NCBI GenBank assembly: GCA_023391535.1
Contig: JAEWAU010000077.1
Location: 1-15,584 of the forward strand
Origin: Bacillota bacterium
GTDB taxonomy: Bacteria > Bacillota > Clostridia > Oscillospirales > Ethanoligenentaceae
Length of the DNA stretch: 15,584 nucleotides
Direction of reading: 5' to 3'
Shown in pieces: positions 878 to 15,534 of this stretch. The notes beneath the pieces were generated by a model, which saw only the letters and a list, made by a program, of their open reading frames with translations, was not told the origin of the DNA and did not search any database. A program made the translations under genes and the position numbers. The stretch's first letter is position 1. Each line of letters begins with the position of its first letter.

Positions 878-986
878 GGTTGCGGCGTTCCATAAAAGCC
901 TGAAAGAGACTTCGTTTCGTCCGCCTGTCTTCGCGAAAAGGCGAAACGCTTCCAAAGCCGTCGGTCTTTTCTGGAGATGCCGCGGG
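878..986 (-). repeat. Copy C5 (minus orientation) of the ~105-nt intergenic repeat/structured-RNA-like element family.
   Basis: The reverse complement begins cccgcggcatctccagaaaag...ggaagcgtttcgccttttcgcg and ends ggcttttatggaacgccgc. This aligns block by block with the copy at 9350-9460. Confidence 0.6.
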
Positions 987-2631: not shown

Positions 2632-4338
2632 CTAGCGGCCGATGCGGTCCATCAATGCCTTAACCTGTTCGGGCGAAAGCTTGATCTGCTTGCGGTCGTA
2701 GGTGATCAAGCCGTTGAGCTCGTCTTCCACGTCGGTGAGCTGGGTGTAGACGGCGGCGGCAAGGCCCGCCTTTTTTGCCGGTGCGATCTGCTCCTCGTAG
2801 AGCTTTGCGAATGCGTCCCAGAGCTCCCCGGGCGACCTCAGCTTTTTATAGCCGAAGTCCTTTGCGTTAAAGCAGTGCCCTTCCACGCGGAAGTTATAGC
2901 CGCCGAACTCGGAAAGGCCCTCCGCGCGCCCCAGCCGGTCCGGGCGGAACCGGTATTTCCGGAAGTAGACGTGGCGGCTGTGAAATTCCCCGGCTCCCTG
3001 GTCGTACCAGCCGCTCGCGTGGTCCGCCACGCGCGTGCCGTCGAGCTTTCGGAGCAGGGCGCAGGCCTTCGCGGCGTCGAACTGCCCCCATCCCTCGTTG
3101 AAAGCGACCCACATGGAGACGCACACCGTATTGTACAGGCAGGCAACCGTCTCCTCCAGCTCCCGGATATACTGCGCGCGGCCCTGCGCGTCCCCACGCG
3201 AAAAGAGGGAATAGCGGCTGTCCTTCGTGCGAAGCTCGCCCAGCGCCGGCAGGCTCACCACAAGCGGCCGGTAAGCTCCGCCGCCGCACACCATATCCTG
3301 CCACACCAGCATGCCCAAACGGTCGCAGTGATAATACCAGCGCAGCGGCTCGACTTTGATGTGCTTGCGAAGCAGGTTGTACCCCATGCTCTTGGCCGTT
3401 TGGATATCGAACACCATGGCCTCGTCCGAGGGCGCCGTGTAGAGCCCGTCGCAGTAATAGCCCTGGTCGAGCAATCCGTTCTGGAAATACGGCCGGTTGT
3501 TCAAAAACAGGCGGCGGATTCCGGCCTCGTCCGTGCCCACGGAGAATTTCCGCATTCCGAAATAGCTTTGCACCCGGTCCTGCCCCATCGTGACGGTGAG
3601 GCCGTACAAAAACGGGTTTTCCGGCGTCCACGGCGTAAACTCCCCCAGCGGAAGCTTCGCCGGCTCCCCCGCCGCAAAGGCGATCGTTCTGCCGCCCGCC
3701 TCCGCCGTGCACGGGAGGGAGGAATCCGAGAGCACCGTGATCTCCACCGCGCCTTCGTCGAACAGCGGCGTAACGCGCAGCGAGCGGATATACGCCTCCG
3801 GCACGCTCTCGGCCCACACCGTCTGCCAGATGCCGCTCTGCGCCGTGTACCAGATGCCGCCGCGCACAAGCTTCTGCTTTCCCCTGCCGTACGGCGAGGC
3901 GTCGCTGTCGTCGCGCACCTTCACCACGAGCGTGTTCTCTTCCCGCAGCCCTTCGGTGATATCCGCGCCGAACGGGGTGTATCCCCCCGCGTGGGAGCAC
4001 ACCTCCCGCCCGTTTACATACACTGCGGCTTTCTGGTCCACCGCGCCGAAATGCAGCAGCACCCGGCCGATGCAAAACCCCTCGGGGATGCGGAACGTGC
4101 GCCGGTACCACAGCGTCTGCCCCGGCCGCAGGGTGCGCCCCACGCCGCTCAGCTCACATTCGGGCGAAAAGGGAACCAGAATCTTCCCCTCGAACGCGTC
4201 GGGTATCCGCTCCGTATCGGTAAACGCGTAGTCCCACGGGCCGTTGAGGTTCAGGCAGCTTTCGCGCGCCATCTGCGGGCGCGGGTATTCGGGCAGGATC
4301 TTGTTTTCATCCAGAGCTTCCCCCCAGGGAGTTTTCAT
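2632..4338 (-). CDS. Glycoside hydrolase family 2 enzyme (beta-galactosidase / beta-mannosidase / beta-glucuronidase superfamily), 568 aa. Specificity not resolved.
   Basis: N-terminal sugar-binding domain (LNGPWDYAF, WYRRTF). Acid/base motif WVAFNEGWG and nucleophile motif LSEFGGYNF in the TIM barrel. Start is MKTPWGE at 4338 with RBS GGGGGAG. The ATG lies 1 nt after the upstream MFS stop (TAAcATG). Confidence 0.85.
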   Translation of the reverse strand: MKTPWGEALDENKILPEYPRPQMARESCLNLNGPWDYAFTDTERIPDAFEGKILVPFSPECELSGVGRTLRPGQTLWYRRTFRIPEGFCIGRVLLHFGAVDQKAAVYVNGREVCSHAGGYTPFGADITEGLREENTLVVKVRDDSDASPYGRGKQKLVRGGIWYTAQSGIWQTVWAESVPEAYIRSLRVTPLFDEGAVEITVLSDSSLPCTAEAGGRTIAFAAGEPAKLPLGEFTPWTPENPFLYGLTVTMGQDRVQSYFGMRKFSVGTDEAGIRRLFLNNRPYFQNGLLDQGYYCDGLYTAPSDEAMVFDIQTAKSMGYNLLRKHIKVEPLRWYYHCDRLGMLVWQDMVCGGGAYRPLVVSLPALGELRTKDSRYSLFSRGDAQGRAQYIRELEETVACLYNTVCVSMWVAFNEGWGQFDAAKACALLRKLDGTRVADHASGWYDQGAGEFHSRHVYFRKYRFRPDRLGRAEGLSEFGGYNFRVEGHCFNAKDFGYKKLRSPGELWDAFAKLYEEQIAPAKKAGLAAAVYTQLTDVEDELNGLITYDRKQIKLSPEQVKALMDRIGR

Positions 4339-5973: not shown

Positions 5974-6008
5974 TTTCCGCCGCAAAACAAAACAGGGTGA
6001 AAAAACGC

Positions 6009-8060
6009 TTACATCGGCTTTGCGTTCCCGGAGCTTTCTTCCGGCGCGGGAGCCGTTTCGGCCTGCGGCGCCGCGGCGGGCGCCGGGTTCGCGTCTGCGG
6101 GAGCCTCCGCCCTGGGCGCGGAAGGCATCTCCACGCCGAGCTTCGAGAGCGTGAGCAAATTGAGCAGCACCGAAAGAATGCCGCCGTCGCTCTGCTTCTC
6201 CGCGCCTCCCATGTTTACAACGGTCGTGGGCACGAGCGGGATTTTGGATTCGCGCATCGCCTCGGAGAGCTTGTCGGCGATCTCCTGCGTGAGCCGGTAG
6301 CCCGAACCGCCGTAGGCTTCCACCTGCTTCTGGATGGCCGTCGCCTTTGCGGTGCCCACGGCGGCTTCCTTTTCGGCCTCCGCGTTGCCTTCGAGGCGCA
6401 CGCGCTCGGCGTCGGCCCGCGCGATGGAGACGATCTTGTTGGCTTCCTGCGCGGCCTTGCGCGCAATGGCCTCGCCTTCGTTGGCCGCCACGTCGATGGC
6501 GATCTTGGACTGCGTGAGCGCCGTCTGGTTCTGCGCGGCGGCCTGCGCCTCGCGCAGGCTGCGCTCGGTTTCGGCGGCTTCGCGCTGCTTGTCGTAGGTG
6601 ACCTTCTGCTCCTCGGCGATCTGCCGGTCGCGCAGCTGGGTGAGGATGTTCTCGATGCGGCTGTCGCCCGGGGCGGCCTCCGGCGTACCGATGAGCACCT
6701 CTTCAAGGCTGAGGTTGTAGGCCGCGAACTTCTCGCGCATCTCCACCACCGCGCGTTCGCGGATGGCGCTGCGCTCCTGGATCAGCTCGATGAGCGTCTT
6801 GGTTTGGGCAATATCCTTGAAATACGCGGAAACCAGCGGGTCCAGCGACTGATTGACGAGCTTGGTAAGATCCCCGAAGCGCTGGATGACCCAAGGCGCC
6901 TCCTTGTAATCGATGTGCATCACGACGGAAAGCGGCAGCATCGGCTCGAACGCGTCCTTGGTGATGATATCCACCTCGGCGAGGTCGGCGTCGTATTTCT
7001 GCCCGCCGCTCTCATCCTTCTTCCACTTGAGGATGATGTTGGTGGTGGGCACCAGCGAGATGGCGCCCGCGTCGGTGTTGAACGCGTATTTGCCGGGCAT
7101 CAGCGGCTCGGCCAGCACGCCCTTGCAGCCGGCCTTTACCAGCTCGCCGTGGCCGTACTCCTCGCCCGTGGTGTCGGCTCCGCGCTTGCCGTAGAACGAC
7201 GTGACCACGCCCACGTACCCGATGGGGACAATGGTTTTGGGCCGCAGCTCCACCGTGGCGAACAGGCGGTTGATGTAATAGGTGCCGTCCGTGAGCACCT
7301 GGAGCTGTTTGCCGCGGCAGCCGCCCTCGGCAAGGAAATGCTCCGGGTCCTGAAAGCTCGCGTGGCCGTTGCCCACGTCGGGCGCAATAATCTCATTCTG
7401 CGCAATGGAAGGCCCGTCGTGCACGGTGACGATGCCGAGCATGTCGCTCGCGTCGCCCATGCCGGGCGTGCGCGGCCCCGCGCTGATGATGACCACGGGC
7501 GTGAACGCATTGCGCGCCTTGAGCGTGTTCTCAAGGCTCTGAAGCTCGGAGAGCTCGCGGGCTCCGGCGGCGATGGATTTGATGCCCGAGGTGGTGACGA
7601 CGATGAACTGGGCGAGGTTGATGGCGTAGGTGCCCTCGCGGAGGATACCGCGCTGCGGGCCGCGCTGCCCGCCGTTTTTCAAAAAGCCGCGCACGTCCTG
7701 AAAGTTATCCGCTTCCGGAACCACGCGCCCGAGGGTCTGCTGCGGCGCGAGGGGAACGCCGTCGCGGGCGAACACATAGGCCATTTCGCCCTGCGAAACG
7801 GTGAGGAGCGGATACCGGTGGATGCGGTACATCAGCGCCGTGCGGAAGTGGACGCCGCCGCGCAGCAGGTCGGGCATATAGCCCGCCTCTCCGTTTAACG
7901 CGATGATGGAATTTTTGAGCGAGCCTTTGAAGCTGAACCATTTTTCCACCACGGCTACTTCGCTCGGCTTGATGACGCGCAGGCCCAGGATTTTGAAAAT
8001 GAGGAGCCAGAGGACGATCAGCCCTCCCACGACGTAGAGGACCGGCAGGAGATTACCCAT
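6009..8060 (-). CDS. floT: Flotillin-like SPFH/band-7 domain protein (FloT/YuaG type), 683 aa, with an Ala/Pro-rich C-terminal tail.
   Basis: N-terminal membrane hairpin MGNLLPVLYVVGGLIVLWLLIF, SPFH core, and a long Ala/Glu-rich coiled-coil region (EAQAAAQNQ..., AEAEKEAAVG). Start at 8060 with RBS GAAAGGAAGG. The annotated 727-aa ORF adds 44 unsupported N-terminal residues. Confidence 0.85.
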   Translation of the reverse strand: MGNLLPVLYVVGGLIVLWLLIFKILGLRVIKPSEVAVVEKWFSFKGSLKNSIIALNGEAGYMPDLLRGGVHFRTALMYRIHRYPLLTVSQGEMAYVFARDGVPLAPQQTLGRVVPEADNFQDVRGFLKNGGQRGPQRGILREGTYAINLAQFIVVTTSGIKSIAAGARELSELQSLENTLKARNAFTPVVIISAGPRTPGMGDASDMLGIVTVHDGPSIAQNEIIAPDVGNGHASFQDPEHFLAEGGCRGKQLQVLTDGTYYINRLFATVELRPKTIVPIGYVGVVTSFYGKRGADTTGEEYGHGELVKAGCKGVLAEPLMPGKYAFNTDAGAISLVPTTNIILKWKKDESGGQKYDADLAEVDIITKDAFEPMLPLSVVMHIDYKEAPWVIQRFGDLTKLVNQSLDPLVSAYFKDIAQTKTLIELIQERSAIRERAVVEMREKFAAYNLSLEEVLIGTPEAAPGDSRIENILTQLRDRQIAEEQKVTYDKQREAAETERSLREAQAAAQNQTALTQSKIAIDVAANEGEAIARKAAQEANKIVSIARADAERVRLEGNAEAEKEAAVGTAKATAIQKQVEAYGGSGYRLTQEIADKLSEAMRESKIPLVPTTVVNMGGAEKQSDGGILSVLLNLLTLSKLGVEMPSAPRAEAPADANPAPAAAPQAETAPAPEESSGNAKPM

Positions 8061-8602: not shown

Positions 8603-9085
8603 TCAGCCTTTCGCGAACAGCAGGGATGCCTGCAATACGCCGGCATACGCCGCCCAGAGCAGCAGCGGCAGCAGCAGGAAGCCGGCGGCGCGGTCCGCGC
8701 GGAAGAACCGCACGGTGGCCAGCAGCAGGTACAGCAGCAGGAGCAGCAGGCACACGAACGCGGCGAAATGCAGCCCCAGCGCGAAAAAGAGTACGCTCCA
8801 CAGCACCTGGAACGCGAGCTGCAGCAAAAACGCCGAAAGCGCCCCTTTCGCCCTTTCCCCGTCTTTACGCCACACGCGCCAGAAGGCGATGCCCGAAAGC
8901 AGGTAAAGCGCGCCCCAAACCGGCCCGAACGCCCACGCGGGCGGGGCGAACGCCGGCTTTTGCAGCATGGCGTAGATTTCCCCGGCGTTTTGCGACGCGA
9001 GCGCTCCGAGCGCCCCCGCTCCGAACGTCAGCAGCAGCGAGGCGACGAGCTTCAAAGCCGAGCTCCCTTTTGCCGAATCCGCCAT
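8603..9085 (-). CDS. tspO: TspO/MBR family tryptophan-rich sensory protein (translocator protein homolog).
   Basis: About 160 aa with five TM segments and Trp-rich conserved blocks (FAPPAWAFGPVWGALYLLSGIAFWRVW, LLLWAAYAG). Start ATG 9085 lies 7 nt after GGAGAAGGAG. Confidence 0.8.
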   Translation of the reverse strand: MADSAKGSSALKLVASLLLTFGAGALGALASQNAGEIYAMLQKPAFAPPAWAFGPVWGALYLLSGIAFWRVWRKDGERAKGALSAFLLQLAFQVLWSVLFFALGLHFAAFVCLLLLLLYLLLATVRFFRADRAAGFLLLPLLLWAAYAGVLQASLLFAKG

Positions 9086-9124
9086 ACGCACTCCTTCTCC
9101 CGGTTTTCACCGTACGTCCCATTC

Positions 9125-9163
9125 TATGCCCGCGCGCGCACCGTTATGCCCGGGCGCGCACCG
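9125..9163. repeat. Tandem direct repeat (2 x 19 nt, 20-bp period) in the tspO/mazF divergent region. Candidate operator.
   Basis: TATGCCCGCGCGCGCACCG / TATGCCCGGGCGCGCACCG, 17/19 identical. The minus strand of the first unit ends in the TAGAAT -10-like hexamer of the putative tspO promoter (9121-9126). Confidence 0.5.
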
Positions 9164-9349
9164 AACTCGGACAAAGTGAAAAGTTGTCCCACATCACACC
9201 GGCGGCGAATATACTGAACCAGAAGCGAAAATATTTTTCCCGCTTTGCCAATACCCGACAGACATCTGTTTTGAAATATATGGATATTCAAGGGAATTTC
9301 ATGTTTAAACGGCGCATTTTTGCGGCACAATAAAAATGGTTCCGGCAAT

Positions 9350-9460
9350 CCTGCAGCATTTCCAGAAAAGATGGATGCATTCCGAAGCGATTCGCCTTTT
9401 GCCGGAGGCAAACAGACGAATCGCGGCTTCCCCCGATTTTTATGGAATTGCCGCCATGCG
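9350..9460 (+). repeat. Copy C1 (plus orientation) of the ~105-nt element. It forms the 5' leader of mazF.
   Basis: cctgcagcatttccagaaaag...ccgaagcgattcgccttttgccggagg...acagacgaatcGCGGCTTCCcccgatttttatGGAATTGCCGCc. The first 21 nt are the exact reverse complement of 10723-10743. Confidence 0.65.
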
Positions 9461-9512
9461 CTTCCGAGGCGCCGCCGGGGCCGTAGAAAATCTTACCGGA
9501 GAGTGGAGAGTC

Positions 9513-9890
9513 GTGACGGTTCACAGAGGAGAAATCTATTACGCCGATCTCAGCCCCGTTGTCGGGTCCGAGCAAGGCGGCGTGCGGCCGGTGCTGATCG
9601 TGCAGAACGACGTCGGCAACCGGTACAGTCCCACCGTGATCGCGGCGGCGATCACGAGCCAAACAGCTAAAACGCGGCTGCCCACGCACATCAACATCAA
9701 TGCCGACAGCTGCGGGCTTTCGAAAAATTCCGTGGTGCTTCTCGAACAGATTCGGACCCTCGACAAGAGGAGGCTCAAAGAGCGCATGGGCACGCTGGAT
9801 ATACCTTCCATGCAGAAGGTGGACAATGCGCTCACCATCAGTTTCGGGCTTGGCCTGAAAGGTTCCAGCCGGGGCGTGGAACATACATAA
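9513..9890 (+). CDS. mazF: MazF/PemK-family mRNA interferase (EndoA/NdoA-like endoribonuclease toxin).
   Basis: Near-identity blocks to Bacillus EndoA: [28 protein letters not shown] and [19 protein letters not shown] start 9513 follows RBS GGAGAGTGGAGAG. The in-frame upstream 59 codons (from ATG 9336) have no RBS and overlap the repeat element. Confidence 0.85.
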
Positions 9891-9918
9891 AACTGTCCCG
9901 GAAAAGAATACCCGATTT

Positions 9919-9966
9919 TCGGCGCTGTGAAACGCAAATTCTGCGCTTTGCGGCGCCCCTTTTTTG
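9919..9966 (+). terminator. Rho-independent terminator after mazF.
   Basis: Nested stem GGCGC..CGCAAA-uucugcgc-UUUGCG..GCGCC followed by CCTTTTTT. Confidence 0.6.
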
Positions 9967-10120
9967 CCCGGGAATAACGTGCGCGCGCCGCGCGAATACT
10001 ATGAGCAGTTCCATTTCTGTTCGGGAGAAGCCGAAAAAAAACCTGCAGGAAATGCCGCCGCACAAAATCCGTTTCCTATCGGGCTTCGTACCGCTATTGT
10101 AGAAGGAAGGATGGACCGCA

Positions 10121-10306
10121 ATGCCCAATATCACCGACCGGGAGCTGGAAACGCTGCAGAATCTGCTCGGGAACGAGCAGGTGCTCGTAAAAAAGTACCG
10201 CTTTTTCGCCTCCTCCTGCACCGATCCTCAGCTCCGCGTCAAATTCCAGCAGATGGCGGCGCGCCACACGGACCATTTCAACCGCCTGCTCAGCTACCTG
10301 AACTGA
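10121..10306 (+). CDS. Small CotF-family (Coat_F domain) spore coat protein, 61 aa.
   Basis: Coat_F-like N-terminal pattern TDRELETLQNLLGNEQVLVKKY. RBS GGAAGG 10 nt upstream of the ATG. Paired with a second Coat_F gene, as in Bacillus yraD/yraF. Confidence 0.65.
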   Translation: MPNITDRELETLQNLLGNEQVLVKKYRFFASSCTDPQLRVKFQQMAARHTDHFNRLLSYLN

Positions 10307-10360
10307 ACACACCGCCGAAAGGCGCAGCGCCGAAAATGCGCGGAAAGGAAAGCCGCACCG

Positions 10361-10639
10361 ATGGATCAGAATCAGAACAGCGCCAACGTCCTGGGCGACC
10401 GGGAAATGCTGGAGGATTTTATCTCCTCCCAAAAGCACCTCACGGAAAGCTATAATGCATTCGCCAATACCTGTGCCACGCCCAATCTGCGAGACGAATA
10501 CATGAACATCCTCAAAGACGAGCACCAGATTGAGGCGGAGCTGCTCGACGAGTCGCTCAAGCGGGGCTGGATGCAGATTCAGCAGGCAGACCTGCAAAAA
10601 GCGGCGCAGCTTAAGCAGCAATATCAGAACGCTTTTTAG
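10361..10639 (+). CDS. CotF-family (Coat_F domain) spore coat protein, 92 aa.
   Basis: LGDREMLEDFISSQKHLTESYNAFANTCATPNLR is typical of Coat_F domain proteins. RBS GGAAAGGAAAG 7 nt upstream. Confidence 0.7.
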   Translation: MDQNQNSANVLGDREMLEDFISSQKHLTESYNAFANTCATPNLRDEYMNILKDEHQIEAELLDESLKRGWMQIQQADLQKAAQLKQQYQNAF

Positions 10640-10743
10640 CAATTCCGGTAAAGATTGAGAAAAGCCGTATTTTGTCTCGGTTTGGCAAAATACCCCCGAA
10701 ATATCCCGGAATGATCCGATCTTTTCTGGAAATGCTGCAGGCT
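10639..10743 (-). repeat. Copy C2 (minus orientation) of the ~105-nt element. The most divergent copy; its end overlaps the cotF stop codon.
   Basis: Reverse complement begins cctgcagcatttccagaaaag, a 21-nt exact match to C1, and ends ...ctttaccggaattgct. Confidence 0.6.
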
Positions 10744-10765
10744 GGCGGGAAACCGCCCGGCAAAC

Positions 10766-10803: not shown

Positions 10804-10810
10804 CGGTTTA

Positions 10811-10908
10811 TAGCAACTTCATAAAAAATTGAGAAAAGTTGCGTTCCGCCCCTCCGGCGGAAAGGCGGAACGCTTCGGAACCTGCCAAACTTTTCTGGAA
10901 ATGCTGTA
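10811..10908 (-). repeat. Copy C3 (minus orientation) of the ~105-nt element, in tandem with C2.
   Basis: Reverse complement: tacagcatttccagaaaag tttggcaggttccgaagcg ttccgcctttccgccggagg ...GCAACTTttctcaattttttatgAAGTTGCta. The hairpin stem covaries with C1 and C4. Confidence 0.65.
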
Positions 10909-11505: not shown

Positions 11506-11618
11506 CCGTTTCCAGCATTTCTGGAAAAACCGGCATATTTCAATGCATTTCGCCGAATCGAGAGAGACAGACGGAATGCAGTTCCTCCCGATCTTTATGG
11601 AATTGCTATAGCGATGCG
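11506..11618 (+). repeat. Copy C4 (plus orientation) of the ~105-nt element. It forms the entire 5' UTR of the dac gene.
   Basis: ccgtttccagcatttctggaaaaacc...atgcatttcgccgaatcg...acagacggaatGCAGTTCCtcccgatctttatGGAATTGCtatagcgatgcg. Here the 5' motif has an inverted central tetranucleotide (CTGG versus CCAG) and folds as its own 7-bp hairpin UUUCCAG-CAUUU-CUGGAAA. Confidence 0.65.
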
Positions 11619-12901: not shown

Positions 12902-12962
12902 TTGACAATGCCGGCGGCTTGCAGTATCCTTTAAGTACACCTATTATGTATACTTGCAAGTA
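12902..12962 (+). promoter_or_regulatory. Promoter of the Rrf2 gene with a 12-bp perfect palindrome (candidate auto-operator).
   Basis: Either TTGACA-N17-TATCCT (12902-12930) or TTGCAG-N17-TATTAT (12919-12947). The palindrome TACTTGCAAGTA (12951-12962) lies between the -10 and the RBS GGAGAG. Confidence 0.6.
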
Positions 12963-14164: not shown

Positions 14165-14213
14165 ATACCGTGAACGTTACGCATACCGTGAACGACAATG
14201 CGTACCGTGAACG
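14165..14213 (+). repeat. Three tandem direct repeats of (A/G)TACCGTGAACG (period 18-19 bp), plus an overlapping palindrome, upstream of the yaaH-like gene.
   Basis: ATACCGTGAACG at 14165-14176 and 14183-14194; GTACCGTGAACG at 14202-14213; degenerate fourth unit TCAACG follows. GCGTACCG-TGAA-CGGTACGC palindrome at 14200-14219. A sigE/sigK-like CATACCGT lies inside unit 2. Confidence 0.6.
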
Positions 14214-14253
14214 GTACGCCGTCAACGCAGGACCGAAAAGGACAGTGATCGGT

Positions 14254-15534
14254 TTGGTCATCTATGTGGTACGGCCCGGGGACAGCGTCTATTCCATCGC
14301 CCGGGCACACGGCGTCACGCCCGAAAGCGTCATCCGCACCAACCGGCTCGCAAACCCCGCGCAGCTCGTCGTGGGGCAGGCGCTGCTGCTCCCCGTGCAG
14401 GGCTACGAATACACGGTGCGCAGCGGCGACACCGTCTATTCCATCGCGCGCGCCACAGGCGCGAGCCAGGCGTCCATTTTCCGGGCGAACCCGCAGATTC
14501 CCCAGAGCGGCGCGCTCTCGCCCGGGCAGGTGCTCATAATCCCCGCGCCGGAGCCGAAGCTCGGCACCATCGAGGTCAACGGCTACATATTCCCCGGCTC
14601 CAATGAGCAGGTGGTGCGCGACGCGCTGCCCTCCCTCACCTATCTGAGCGTTTTTTCCCACGAGGTTGCCGCGGACGGCACCCTCAGCACCGTGGACGAC
14701 GCCAAATGGATTGCCATGGCGCGTGCGGCGCGCGTGGCGCCCATCATGGTGGTGGCGAACATCCGCCCCTCGGGCGGCTTCTCCAGCGATATTGCCGGCG
14801 CCGTCCTCGCCACTCCCGAAACGCGAAGCAAGCTCATCGACATCATCGCGAGCACCATGCAGCGCAAGAACTACTACGGCGTGAACATGGACCTCGAGTA
14901 CATCCGGCCCGAGGACCGCGAAAATTACAACCAGTTCCTGCGCGAGCTTTCGGCGCGGCTGGGGCAGCTGGGCGCTCCGCTGCTCACCGCCGTGGCGCCC
15001 AAGGTCTCGGCCACGCAGCAGGGCCTTCTCTACGAGGCGCACGACTACCCCGTGCACGGCGAGGTGGCCAACCGCGTCATCCTCATGACCTACGAATGGG
15101 GCTACCTCGCGGGCCCGCCGCAAGCCGTGGCGCCGCTCGACCAGGTTCGCCGTGTGCTGGAATACGCCGTAACGGCCATTCCGCCCCAGAAGATCCTCAT
15201 GGGGGTGCCCAACTACGGGTACGACTGGACCCTTCCCTACCGGCGCGGGACGCTCGCCACCACGTTCTCGAACGTCGAAGCCGTAAACCGCGCCTTCCGC
15301 AACAACGCCGAGATCCAGTTCGACCAAACGGCCCAGTCTCCGTTTTTCAACTACACCGACGCCCAGGGCCGCCAGCATGTGGTGTGGTTCGAGGATGTGC
15401 GCTCGCTTCGGCAGAAATTCCTGCTCGTGCACGAGCTCGGCCTCGCAGGCATCAGTTACTGGACCATTGAGCGCCCCTTCCCACAGAACCTGGCGCTGTT
15501 AAACTCCATGTACGATGTGAAAAAGCTGCTGTAA
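14254..15534 (+). CDS. Spore peptidoglycan hydrolase of the YaaH/SleL type: two N-terminal LysM domains and a GH18 catalytic domain.
   Basis: LysM1 YVVRPGDSVYSIARAHGVTPESVIRTN; LysM2 YTVRSGDTVYSIARATGASQASIFRAN. GH18 active-site region YYGVNMDLEYIRPED resembles YaaH DGVNIDFE. Start uncertain: TTG 14254 lies 11 nt after AAAGGA; in-frame GTG 14245 and the track's GTG 14170 are less plausible. Confidence 0.8.
   Translation: MVIYVVRPGDSVYSIARAHGVTPESVIRTNRLANPAQLVVGQALLLPVQGYEYTVRSGDTVYSIARATGASQASIFRANPQIPQSGALSPGQVLIIPAPEPKLGTIEVNGYIFPGSNEQVVRDALPSLTYLSVFSHEVAADGTLSTVDDAKWIAMARAARVAPIMVVANIRPSGGFSSDIAGAVLATPETRSKLIDIIASTMQRKNYYGVNMDLEYIRPEDRENYNQFLRELSARLGQLGAPLLTAVAPKVSATQQGLLYEAHDYPVHGEVANRVILMTYEWGYLAGPPQAVAPLDQVRRVLEYAVTAIPPQKILMGVPNYGYDWTLPYRRGTLATTFSNVEAVNRAFRNNAEIQFDQTAQSPFFNYTDAQGRQHVVWFEDVRSLRQKFLLVHELGLAGISYWTIERPFPQNLALLNSMYDVKKLL

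Follow-up and report, generated by a model that had tools for sequence, protein, structure and literature searches.

Analysis of the window, by which we mean the whole 15,584-nt stretch of DNA, confirmed that its mazF gene belongs to a clade-wide pattern: in the Oscillospirales mazF is a one-gene unit that has no antitoxin gene adjacent to it. The window gene also has two conserved promoter-like motifs resembling those of sporulation genes, as well as a copy of the Bacillota MazF cut motif lying across its own stop codon. The reading that we prefer, and whose chances we put at even, is that this MazF is a sporulation-stage RNase held in check by cutting its own mRNA at the stop codon. The features of the locus are given in Table 1.

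Table 1. Features of the mazF locus, in window coordinates.
Feature	Position	Strand	Remarks
tspO	8603..9091	-	divergent neighbour, context only; PF03073, E 6e-36
P1, distal promoter-like motif	9186..9215	+	conserved motif; GTCCCA, 15 nt, GAATATACT; sigmaK-like, mother-cell type (predicted)
P2, proximal promoter-like motif	9303..9332	+	conserved motif; GTTTA, 15-16 nt, GGCACAATA; forespore sigmaF/sigmaG type (predicted)
59 in-frame upstream codons (from ATG 9336)	9336..9512	+	non-coding 5'UTR; not conserved; overlap repeat
C1 copy	9345..9455	+	~110-nt structured dispersed repeat, inserted in mazF 5'UTR between P2 and the ribosome-binding site
Ribosome-binding region	9499..9511	+	GGAGAGTGGAGAG; block (C)GGAG(A/C)GTGG, immediately 5' of the start, conserved across seven genera or MAGs
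mazF/ndoA CDS	9513..9890	+	EndoA-type endoribonuclease, 125 aa; GTG start, TAA stop; PF02452; conserved start and ribosome-binding site
3' stem-loop	9862..9909	+	UACAUAA in loop; arms 9869-9877/9892-9901; outer helix 9862-9865 with 9906-9909
TACATA (UACAUA)	9884..9889	+	Bacillota MazF cut motif overlapping the mazF stop (caT ACA TAA; stop 9888-9890)
Intrinsic terminator of mazF	9921..9965	+	15-bp interrupted stem (hairpin 9921-9957), then U-run
CotF-like ORF (61 aa, 10121-10306) and CotF-domain ORF (10361-10639)	10121..10639	+	Coat_F, E 3.6e-16

The 125-aa product is a MazF toxin. It matches the Pfam family PemK_toxin with an E value of 1.5e-35 over profile positions 2-109 of 109, and its best solved relatives are the structures of Bacillus subtilis EndoA/MazF (PDB 4MDX, 4ME7 and 1NE8; E ~1e-42), with identity to the B. 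subtilis protein at 70 of 116 residues (60%). The segments holding Arg25 and Thr48 (GGVRPVL and AAIT), which we take from the work on 4MDX to be the catalytic residues of B. subtilis MazF, are conserved in the alignment, and the segments compared for the catalytic residues and RNA-binding loops, LLEQIRT among them, are identical or almost so. NCBIfam returned sub-threshold matches only, to the proteobacterial MazF and ChpB equivalogs. The gene is a probable orthologue of the chromosomal MazF/EndoA endoribonucleases of Bacillota, the toxin family of the B. subtilis EndoA/EndoAI module (MazF-bs/MazE-bs; ydcE/ydcD) and of the Staphylococcus aureus and Listeria MazEF modules. Across Oscillospirales families the protein is 75-90% identical and its catalytic segments are preserved, pointing to purifying selection.

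The initial annotation gave 9350-9890 for its observation; the MazF/EndoA homology stood, and the conserved start and ribosome-binding site define a coding sequence that begins at 9513 (CGGAGAGTGGAGAG and the start position are kept in seven relatives). Public gene callers over-called mazF as a 184-aa product (P0001), and because they took this longer start, an exact-protein look-up found no record of the 125-aa product. The long call would allow the gene to be read as a fused antitoxin-toxin, which had been named as grounds for rejecting solitary status, or as the decaying, inactive remnant of a toxin. We find both readings barely credible: the 59 extra codons, already described as lacking a ribosome-binding site and lying within a repeat element, indeed overlap an inserted repeat, match no Pfam family and are not conserved among relatives, and the identity of MazF across families, with intact catalytic segments, speaks against decay. 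Also rejected as fusions were P0002 and similar proteins of 134-180 aa, which are MazFs with internal duplications and probably assembly artefacts.

Searches for an antitoxin came back empty on either side of mazF, in agreement with what had been proposed from the letters of the window. Six-frame stop-to-stop ORFs of at least 25 aa from both flanks matched no antitoxin family in Pfam at E values up to 10. EndoAI was found neither in the window nor in 93 related loci, whether by tblastn or with an HMM built from 120 homologues; the positive control for these searches, the B. subtilis alr-mazE-mazF locus, was recovered at E 9e-44. No conserved peptide was present in the mazF flanks among seven close relatives, and of the 89 ORFs (40-130 aa, same strand) directly adjoining mazF in 87 loci, none matched an antitoxin family. 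These 87 loci are the wide comparison set, which consists of non-redundant, species-level Oscillospirales mazF loci that are phylogenetically related, so that p-values overstate their independence. mazF was solitary in 87 of 87. The window gene thus departs from canonical type II modules, in which an antitoxin gene adjoins the toxin, most often upstream and in the same transcript, and has the solitary arrangement of developmental MazFs, with no adjacent antitoxin.

An ordinary type II toxin might nevertheless be neutralized in trans by a protein encoded elsewhere, as the solitary MazF-mx of Myxococcus xanthus is by MrpC. Such an antitoxin would be, for example, a MazE/AbrB-fold sporulation regulator like SpoVT or AbrB, and a recent preprint (bioRxiv 10.64898/2026.08.06.743204) keeps this possibility for Bacillota that have no upstream antitoxin. 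The DNA of the source genome that was inspected amounts to about 20 kb, in which no MrpC-like candidate was found, and no antitoxin family was detected within the 15.6-kb window or a 20.5-kb stretch of the contig. EndoAI-type antitoxins were confined to Bacillales in a database-wide search, and no neighbour of mazF is conserved across the 87 Oscillospirales loci. We regard a trans-acting antitoxin as unlikely, although it deserves serious consideration; it is compatible with both promoters and with the self-site described below, but it offers no reason why TACATA should be under selection at the stop codon.

The surroundings of mazF were largely as initially described, with divergent tspO upstream, a non-coding gap (421 bp, gene-free) and a terminator of its own downstream, which folds with an MFE of -33.8 kcal/mol (z -4.08). 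tspO lies upstream of mazF in 5 of 7 close relatives, the exceptions being Ethanoligenens harbinense and locus L093. Among the genes around the window mazF are several associated with sporulation (CotF, SASP, SipL and Peptidase_S11). The gene order mazF, 61-aa ORF, cotF, often with tspO, is a feature of the close clade only, which here means the window, [Clostridium] cellulosi, E. harbinense and four MAGs; in 80 wider GTDB loci none of the window's mazF neighbours is conserved, and the genes downstream of mazF vary from locus to locus. The 61-aa ORF and CotF pair was considered as a partner of MazF and rejected, since it is not found near mazF in those 80 loci of the wider solitary set.

The initial annotation had also raised RNA-based control, perhaps type III-like, by the structured element C1 in a leader shared with dac. 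The element is indeed structured (-38.8 kcal/mol, z -2.35; comparison of the five copies reveals compensatory changes at 9 of the 26 consensus pairs) and does lie in the mazF 5'UTR. The dac leader has a copy that points the same way (~11511-11612), just downstream of a sigmaA-like promoter. The window, however, contains five copies in both orientations, three of them reversed in unrelated intergenic positions (10650-10751, 10808-10908 and 888-984), and C1 is for this reason a dispersed repeat and not a regulon-shared leader. It is missing upstream of mazF in all relatives, and in the alignment the window copy stands out as an organism-specific insertion between the conserved promoter and ribosome-binding site; the idea that the leader supplies an RNA antitoxin of type III-like kind is consequently unsupported. 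ToxIN-like systems have a tandem direct-repeat array directly upstream of the toxin; at mazF there is a single C1 copy and no adjoining array, and TRF reports only a two-copy 20-nt repeat at 9125-9163, ~350 nt upstream. Rfam searches of leader and repeat had no meaningful hit at gathering or permissive thresholds, a metagenome scan with a C1 17-mer gave single chance matches only, and nhmmer gave no true copies. Control by C1 has already been largely refuted by the comparison with relatives, and we consider it highly improbable; as judged from the alignment, the copy in the mazF 5'UTR is a lineage-specific insertion outside the conserved control.

Conserved upstream of mazF are two promoter-like motifs, to which sigma factors can be provisionally assigned from their resemblance to consensus sequences. 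The distal motif, P1, is kept in all seven close relatives as TTGTCCCA-N..-GAATAnnATG, with a -35 that is divergent in the close clade (CCCA in the window instead of ACA). A sigmaK-type pattern, AC-N16/17-CATAnnAT(A/G), was counted in 42 of the 85 upstream regions, whereas shuffled sequences gave 3.2, the reverse strand 3 and the downstream side 1; alignment on the P1 -10 alone yielded an independent AC signal 17 nt upstream, with C at 62%. P1 resembles mapped sigmaK promoters of Clostridioides difficile, such as that of CD1133 (TCACA-N16-GAATATACT). Its -10 contains a TATAAT-like core and could be that of a sigmaA promoter. A motif of the form AAC-N15-GAATACTAT precedes the neighbouring cotF pair.

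The proximal motif, P2, reaches a score of 13 of 15 or better in 67 of 86 loci, versus 2.8% of shuffled sequences. Its distance from the mazF start is 25-110 nt in every case but the window, where the repeat is inserted; compared with the majority form, the window -10 is short by one base. Among mapped C. difficile promoters, P2 fits those of the sigmaF/G type at spoVT, CD0347, gapN and tepA. Strict regular expressions for the clade-specific promoter motifs had no match in distant loci, which were scanned with mismatches tolerated instead. Some Ruminococcus that have the promoter motifs are not known to sporulate. Transcription of mazF appears, from these predicted sigmaF/G- and sigmaK-type motifs, to be confined to spore formation. 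The expression of C. difficile mazEF is sigmaE-dependent, and the developmental role suggested in the initial annotation gains support by inference from both.

The most distinctive feature of the locus, absent from the initial annotation, is the cut site on the stop codon. UACAUA is, according to the preprint, the site common to the B. subtilis, Listeria and S. aureus MazFs (bioRxiv 10.64898/2026.08.06.743204), and cleavage at this sequence by the window MazF is predicted by extrapolation from these homologues, which are ~60% identical. TACATA stands at CDS end minus 7 (nnT ACA TAA/TAG) in the window and in 22 of the 87 loci, and just past the stop in 4 more. In all 22, Thr is encoded by ACA, the codon for 24% of Thr in gene bodies, and the codon before it has T as its third base; none of them uses TGA as the stop. 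These codon statistics indicate selection on TACATA at the nucleotide level. Of the 113 nearest clusters whose tail has 4 aa or more, 93 end in Thr. In many Ruminococcus and Acutalibacteraceae MazF has no tail, and these genes are solitary yet have no stop-codon site; since, moreover, only 22-26 of the 87 loci have one, it is no universal substitute for an antitoxin.

The site is also displayed in a hairpin at the 3' end of the ORF, the 5' arm of which is coded by the hypervariable C-terminal tail of the protein. Each sequence was folded on its own and judged by an apical-loop criterion, which asks that the site lie in the loop capping a helix of 5 bp or more; this arrangement was seen in 21 of 26 loci versus 36% of flank-shuffled controls (p 3e-6). 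An earlier criterion, requiring all 6 nt to be unpaired above a contiguous 4-bp stem, was satisfied by 8 of 26 and was judged too strict. The arms vary in sequence between genomes while their pairing is kept; ungapped RNAalifold predicted no pairs for the stop-codon hairpin because loop lengths differ among loci. It is plausible that control operates at the RNA level through the 3' end of the gene and not through its leader, and the position of the site on its own stop codon suggests that MazF limits itself by cutting its own mRNA.

The TACATA(A/G) hairpin might instead be something other than a self-cleavage site: its conserved loop could be bound by another factor, the structure could signal termination or recoding or be a variant kind of terminator, or the RNA could serve in cis as a decoy, binding MazF without productive feedback. 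In several loci a U-run follows the hairpin, which may thus double as a terminator (L092, L093), and the UACAUA specificity of the window enzyme is itself predicted from homologues. The motif is nevertheless the exact hexamer reported in the preprint to be cut by the B. subtilis and Listeria MazFs, it lies in a loop, where it can meet the requirement of MazF for single-stranded RNA, and it is missing from the antitoxin-bearing B. subtilis mazEF operon (no TACATA in 5.3 kb). A promoter role is unlikely because the downstream genes differ between loci. We consider it improbable, on balance, that the hairpin is something other than a self-cleavage site.

In the self-limitation that we propose, the antitoxin would be replaced by two things, timing and negative feedback. 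Transcription from the proximal forespore (sigmaF/G)-type and distal sigmaK-like promoters would restrict the RNase to non-growing cells, namely the dormant forespore and a mother cell that is bound to lyse. The last codons, nnU ACA UAA, make UACAUA overlap the stop, and the hairpin loop would keep the site single-stranded. Active MazF would cut U^ACAUA, removing both the stop codon and the 3' stabilizing structures. The resulting non-stop mazF mRNA would be degraded, and any MazF made from it would be tmRNA-tagged for proteolysis; these consequences of self-cutting are predicted from the position of the site. Such feedback would set a ceiling on free MazF, and the hypervariable, Thr-ending tail would be mainly the coding shadow of the 5' arm of the hairpin. 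More tentatively, and with rather less confidence than in the proposal for this locus, we suggest that a widespread subclass of Bacillota MazFs might work without any antitoxin. Such an enzyme would be a sporulation-stage RNase made in both forespore and mother cell, and its activity would be set by the hairpin with UACAUA at the stop codon: free MazF would turn its own message into a non-stop mRNA, newly made MazF would be tmRNA-tagged and destroyed, and the tail would serve only to encode the hairpin arm.

Comparison with known systems shows where this arrangement differs. In B. subtilis an EndoAI of the RHH type is encoded in an alr-mazE-mazF-rsb/sigB context, and the window mazF has neither this antitoxin nor this context; the RNA-binding and catalytic segments of the two toxins are almost identical, so that UACAUA is the expected site. 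Unlike the B. subtilis gene, the window mazF has predicted sporulation-type promoters and encodes a C-terminal tail whose end makes the cut site. C. difficile MazEF (CD3462-CD3461) includes a clostridial EndoA-type MazF with expression tied to sporulation, as is predicted for the window gene, and it has been proposed to contribute to the death of the mother cell. It retains mazE in an operon with mazF, however, and depends on sigmaE, whereas the window promoters are predicted to be of forespore (sigmaF/G) type and sigmaK-like. MazF-mx likewise has no adjacent antitoxin; it is developmentally regulated in a spore-forming life cycle, as is predicted for the window gene. Its lineage and its MazF subfamily are unrelated, however, a transcription factor encoded far away acts as its antitoxin, and no stop-codon self-site has been reported for it.

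About 25% of MazF-encoding Bacillota, Enterococci for example, were reported to have no putative upstream antitoxin (bioRxiv 10.64898/2026.08.06.743204), the same general observation of EndoA-type mazF as made here; the available part of that preprint commits to no mode of control and does not mention Oscillospirales, sporulation promoters or a stop-codon cut site. Locus L216 is an alr-mazF variant without mazE. The logic that we propose for the window resembles two systems together. Escherichia coli MazF cleaves its own mRNA, a post-transcriptional autoregulation, and in ArfA regulation the cleavage of a 3' hairpin leads to a non-stop message and a tmRNA-tagged product. E. coli MazF, however, acts through frequent ACA triplets within mazEF and has MazE, and the ArfA message is cut by RNase III and not by its own product, whereas at the window locus there is one 6-nt site, placed exactly on the stop codon of an antitoxin-less toxin.

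These findings bear on two questions about toxin-antitoxin systems, namely how orphan toxins are tolerated and what purpose chromosomal MazF serves. For annotation, solitary mazF genes of Oscillospirales should not be counted as broken toxin-antitoxin modules, and the 184-aa call is wrong. For one large clade of gut and rumen bacteria, the locus and about 90 relatives provide an answer that is concrete and can readily be put to the test. If the proposal is true, it would represent a new form of toxin regulation, in which an mRNA acts as its own antidote through non-stop decay, and it would link MazF to spore development in the Oscillospirales.

The reading frame flagged in the initial annotation (9350-9890) contains a complete PemK/MazF domain (PF02452, E 1.5e-35), with S. 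aureus MazF and B. subtilis EndoA/MazF as its closest matches among solved structures (E about 1e-42). Alignment with B. subtilis MazF showed 70/116 identical residues, with near-identity at the RNA-binding loops and at the segments containing the catalytic residues Arg25 and Thr48 (B. subtilis numbering); by sequence, the window toxin belongs to the EndoA/MazF family. The domain was correctly recognized, and the extent of the gene is revised to 9513-9890: in an upstream alignment of seven related genomes the RBS block CGGAGAGTGGAGAG was conserved, the start position was identical, and there was no protein-level conservation upstream of the RBS, so the in-frame stretch of 59 codons that begins at ATG 9336 is assigned to the 5'UTR; its lack of an RBS and its overlap with the repeat element had been noted in the initial annotation. 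Public gene callers output a 184-aa product (P0001) from ATG 9336, a start rejected on the same evidence. The divergent tspO, the non-coding gap first estimated at ~420 bp, and a terminator belonging to mazF itself were all recovered (table). The window matches a section of a metagenome scaffold of 151 kb (ENA ERZ28601458, locus L081) at 99.99% identity.

Features at and around mazF, with all copies of the C1 repeat
Feature	Position	Strand	Remarks
C1 copy	888-984	-	~110 nt; one of five within 15.6 kb
tspO	8603-9091	-	divergent from mazF; 421 bp gene-free between
P1, distal promoter-like motif	9186-9215	+	-10 element CATA(t/a)aAT(A/G) across loci
P2, proximal promoter-like motif	9303-9332	+	TG(A/T)T(T/A)TA(A/T)-N14/15-GG(T/C)AAnAATA
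C1 copy	9345-9455	+	in mazF 5'UTR
mazF CDS	9513-9890	+	GTG start
TACATA, predicted MazF cut site	9884-9889	+	overlaps mazF stop; gene end caT ACA TAA
mazF intrinsic terminator	9921-9965	+	strong; follows mazF
C1 copy	10650-10751	-	
C1 copy	10808-10908	-	
C1 copy	11511-11612	+	

Pfam searches (E up to 10) of all stop-to-stop ORFs 25 aa or longer, read in the six frames of each mazF flank, matched no antitoxin family. Neither the window nor any of 93 related loci had a tblastn match to B. subtilis EndoAI (sequence checked against PDB 4ME7_E), and an HMM of 120 EndoAI homologues had the B. subtilis control as its sole match (E 9e-44); a database-wide search turned up EndoAI homologues in Bacillales only. 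A scan of relatives, one genome per species, gave 80 loci at 70-82% identity from Oscillospiraceae, Ruminococcus, Acutalibacteraceae and relatives; [Clostridium] cellulosi, Ethanoligenens harbinense and four MAGs were added through closer proteins, and the non-redundant set numbers 87 loci. An antitoxin-sized ORF of recognizable family abutted mazF in 0 of the 87, and among 89 same-strand ORFs (40-130 aa, at most 150 nt from mazF) none matched RHH, MazE/AbrB, PemI or Phd, the sole family matches being CotF-like, SpoVAC, BacA and RNase III. The gap to the upstream gene in related loci is typically 90-190 nt, and no neighbours of mazF were conserved across the wider related loci. Because the gene is strongly conserved and adjacent antitoxins are missing throughout, we infer that the solitary state first noted for the window is a stable, clade-wide arrangement and not local decay. 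The adjacency that defines a type II module is absent here. Solitary MazF has been noted before in some Bacillota, a 2026 preprint in general terms putting MazF-encoding Bacillota without an upstream antitoxin at ~25% (bioRxiv 10.64898/2026.08.06.743204). An antitoxin encoded elsewhere in the genome has a precedent in M. xanthus, whose solitary MazF is already known to be paired with the distantly encoded MrpC, and the DNA examined from the window genome was the local stretch; we consider this reading possible and rather unlikely.

Several loci showed further arrangements. In one MAG (L216, 4611-6543) mazF comes right after alr (alanine racemase), with 235 nt in between and no mazE, which is the alr-mazE-mazF synteny of Bacillus minus the antitoxin. 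A lipoprotein-like ORF of ~150-200 aa (MKK..LSGC..), not antitoxin-like, is a conserved upstream neighbour ending about 95-140 nt before mazF in Acutalibacteraceae, Fimenecus and Fimivivens (L012, L019, L023, L029, L030, L032, L041, L042, L057, L058, L063, L070). Internal duplications (a ...LPTH segment) occur in 134-180-aa MazF homologues P0002, P0015, P0039, P0043, P0058 and P0061, and in L216 (mazF at 6001-6543) a stretch of 39 nt upstream is duplicated as well; assembly artefacts are a likelier source of such sequences than true fusions.

The initial annotation also raised RNA-based, type III-like control of mazF through C1, the structured repeat in its leader. The five copies share conserved ends (CAGCATTTCCAGAAAAG ... 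TTTATGGAATTGC) and fold as an inner hairpin within an outer helix, with compensatory changes at several pairs, the inner hairpin included, and no Rfam family was matched. C1 was seen only in contigs of the window organism, a C1 17-mer gave only chance matches in metagenomes, and the upstream alignment shows that C1 was inserted after a conserved promoter motif and ahead of the conserved RBS, so C1 does not count as a partner conserved with mazF. No tandem array was found beside the gene, the repeat-array feature of type III systems thus being absent, and control of this type is very improbable. A leader common to mazF and dac holds insofar as both are preceded by C1 in plus orientation, but the three minus copies occupy other intergenic regions. 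The plus copies lie just 3' of promoter-like sequences (P2 for mazF, a TTGCGA-N17-TACAAT motif before dac), and two minus-strand copies are in tandem after the SASP terminator.

An unexpected feature lies at the other end of the gene. The target of B. subtilis and Listeria MazF is U^ACAUA, which is also the site preferred by S. aureus MazF, according to the preprint (bioRxiv 10.64898/2026.08.06.743204). TACATA was found exactly at CDS end minus 7 in 22/87 loci, and in further loci 1 nt (three loci) or 13 nt (one locus) past the stop. All site-bearing MazFs have a 5-14-residue tail beyond the conserved SFGL, hypervariable in sequence yet ending in Thr without exception. All 22 genes with the site at CDS end minus 7 use ACA for the terminal Thr (24% of Thr codons in the same gene bodies), have a T at the end of the codon before it (eight different codons) and stop with TAA/TAG, never with TGA, the stop of 18/65 site-less genes, although the loci are related and these statistics overstate independence. 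By these three features, selection at the mazF 3' end is on the nucleotides, and simple inheritance is made less likely by how much tail and stem sequences vary. Tails of 4 aa or more were present in 113 of the 120 nearest protein clusters, 93 of these Thr-terminated. There is no TACATA in 5.3 kb of the antitoxin-bearing B. subtilis alr-mazE-mazF-rsb locus. Tail-less solitary MazFs (many Ruminococcus, Acutalibacteraceae) lack the stop-codon site, so the self-site characterizes only a subclass of solitary MazFs, to which that of the window belongs.

An inverted repeat flanks TACATA, with sequence varying between genomes and pairing retained: the arms are CCGGGGCGU/AC-GUCCCGG in the window and AGGTGTGGC/GCCACACCT, CAGAAACGC/GCGTTTCTG and CGGGAACGC/GCGTTCCCG in relatives. 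The site fell in the apical loop (4 or more of its 6 nucleotides in the loop, helix 5 bp or longer) in 21/26 loci, whereas controls with shuffled flanks gave 36% (binomial p 3e-6; loci related), and predicted folds around it had a mean MFE z of -2.5.

Another recurrent class of tails, with (E/Q)(L/M)V at the end (e.g., AQTELV, TQPELV, HPETMV), is without the stop-codon site (L007, L018, P0002, P0058, P0061, P0104, P0117). The window has six TACATA hexamers, at mazF 9884, at 4015, 5583, 14056 and 14584 (+), and at 12945 (-); besides mazF, apparently only 14584 is on the sense strand of a called gene, a LysM/GH18 gene (14170-15534) that is a further candidate MazF target.

Upstream, P2 scored at least 13/15 in 67/86 loci versus 2.8% of shuffled regions, and its distance to the start codon is always 25-110 nt except in the window, where the C1 insertion extends it to 180 nt. 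It closely resembles TSS-mapped sigmaF-/sigmaG-dependent promoters of C. difficile (spoVT TGTATA..N..GGTAAAAATA, CD0347 GATTA..GGTAAATACTA, gapN GTTTA..GGCTATAAT). At P1, loci aligned on the -10 alone gave an independent -35 signal at -19 to -17 (A 53%, C 62%, A/C 85%), and AC-N-CATAnnAT occurred in 42/85 upstream regions versus 3.2 in shuffles (max 8), 3 on the reverse strand and 1/85 downstream; C. difficile promoters of sigmaK type are described with this same combination (AC plus CATATAAT). In the window's clade P1 reads GTCCCA (-35) and GAATAnnATG (-10), and the -10 also holds a TATAAT-like core. By consensus, P2 would be sigmaF/sigmaG-type and P1 sigmaK-type. A sigmaK-like motif, AAC-N15-GAATACTAT at 9975-10003 (+), precedes the 61-aa and CotF ORFs (10121-10639), with a -10 resembling that of P1 (GAATATACT). 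Genes for CotF, SASP, SipL, a Peptidase_S11 carboxypeptidase and the LysM-GH18 protein surround mazF, a context that fits sporulation; the sporulation role floated initially gains consensus-based support from these motifs and neighbours. Sporulation-linked expression of mazEF is already known in C. difficile, where it is sigmaE-dependent. In a Ruminococcus flavefaciens MAG (L048, 4394-4756) a gene for a SpoVAC/SpoVAEB sporulation membrane protein (Pfam E 3e-34) is directly downstream of mazF. At 9125-9163 a 20-nt sequence (TATGCCCGCGCGCGCACCGT) is directly repeated in two copies with a 94% match; the repeat adjoins the tspO 5' end, is not conserved in relatives, and may be a tspO regulatory site.

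MazF requires single-stranded RNA, and ribosomes at non-stop ends are rescued by tmRNA in trans-translation, the product being tagged for proteolysis. The hairpin loop would present UACAUA single-stranded to MazF, and with a cut at U^ACAUA the message would lose its final two codons (the stop included) together with the 3' hairpins and be left as a non-stop, unprotected mRNA. MazF made from the cut message would be tmRNA-tagged and degraded, a negative feedback capping free MazF; on this view the tail is variable because its codons have to form the 5' arm of the hairpin. E. coli MazF likewise cleaves its own transcript, and ArfA follows the same non-stop/tmRNA logic; our literature search returned no report of a lone stop-codon cut site in a conserved hairpin with an antitoxin-less MazF and sporulation-type promoters. 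Combined with an expression that would be limited to non-growing sporulating compartments, such feedback could make an antitoxin dispensable, and the arrangement with its stop-codon self-site is conserved, specific and directly testable.
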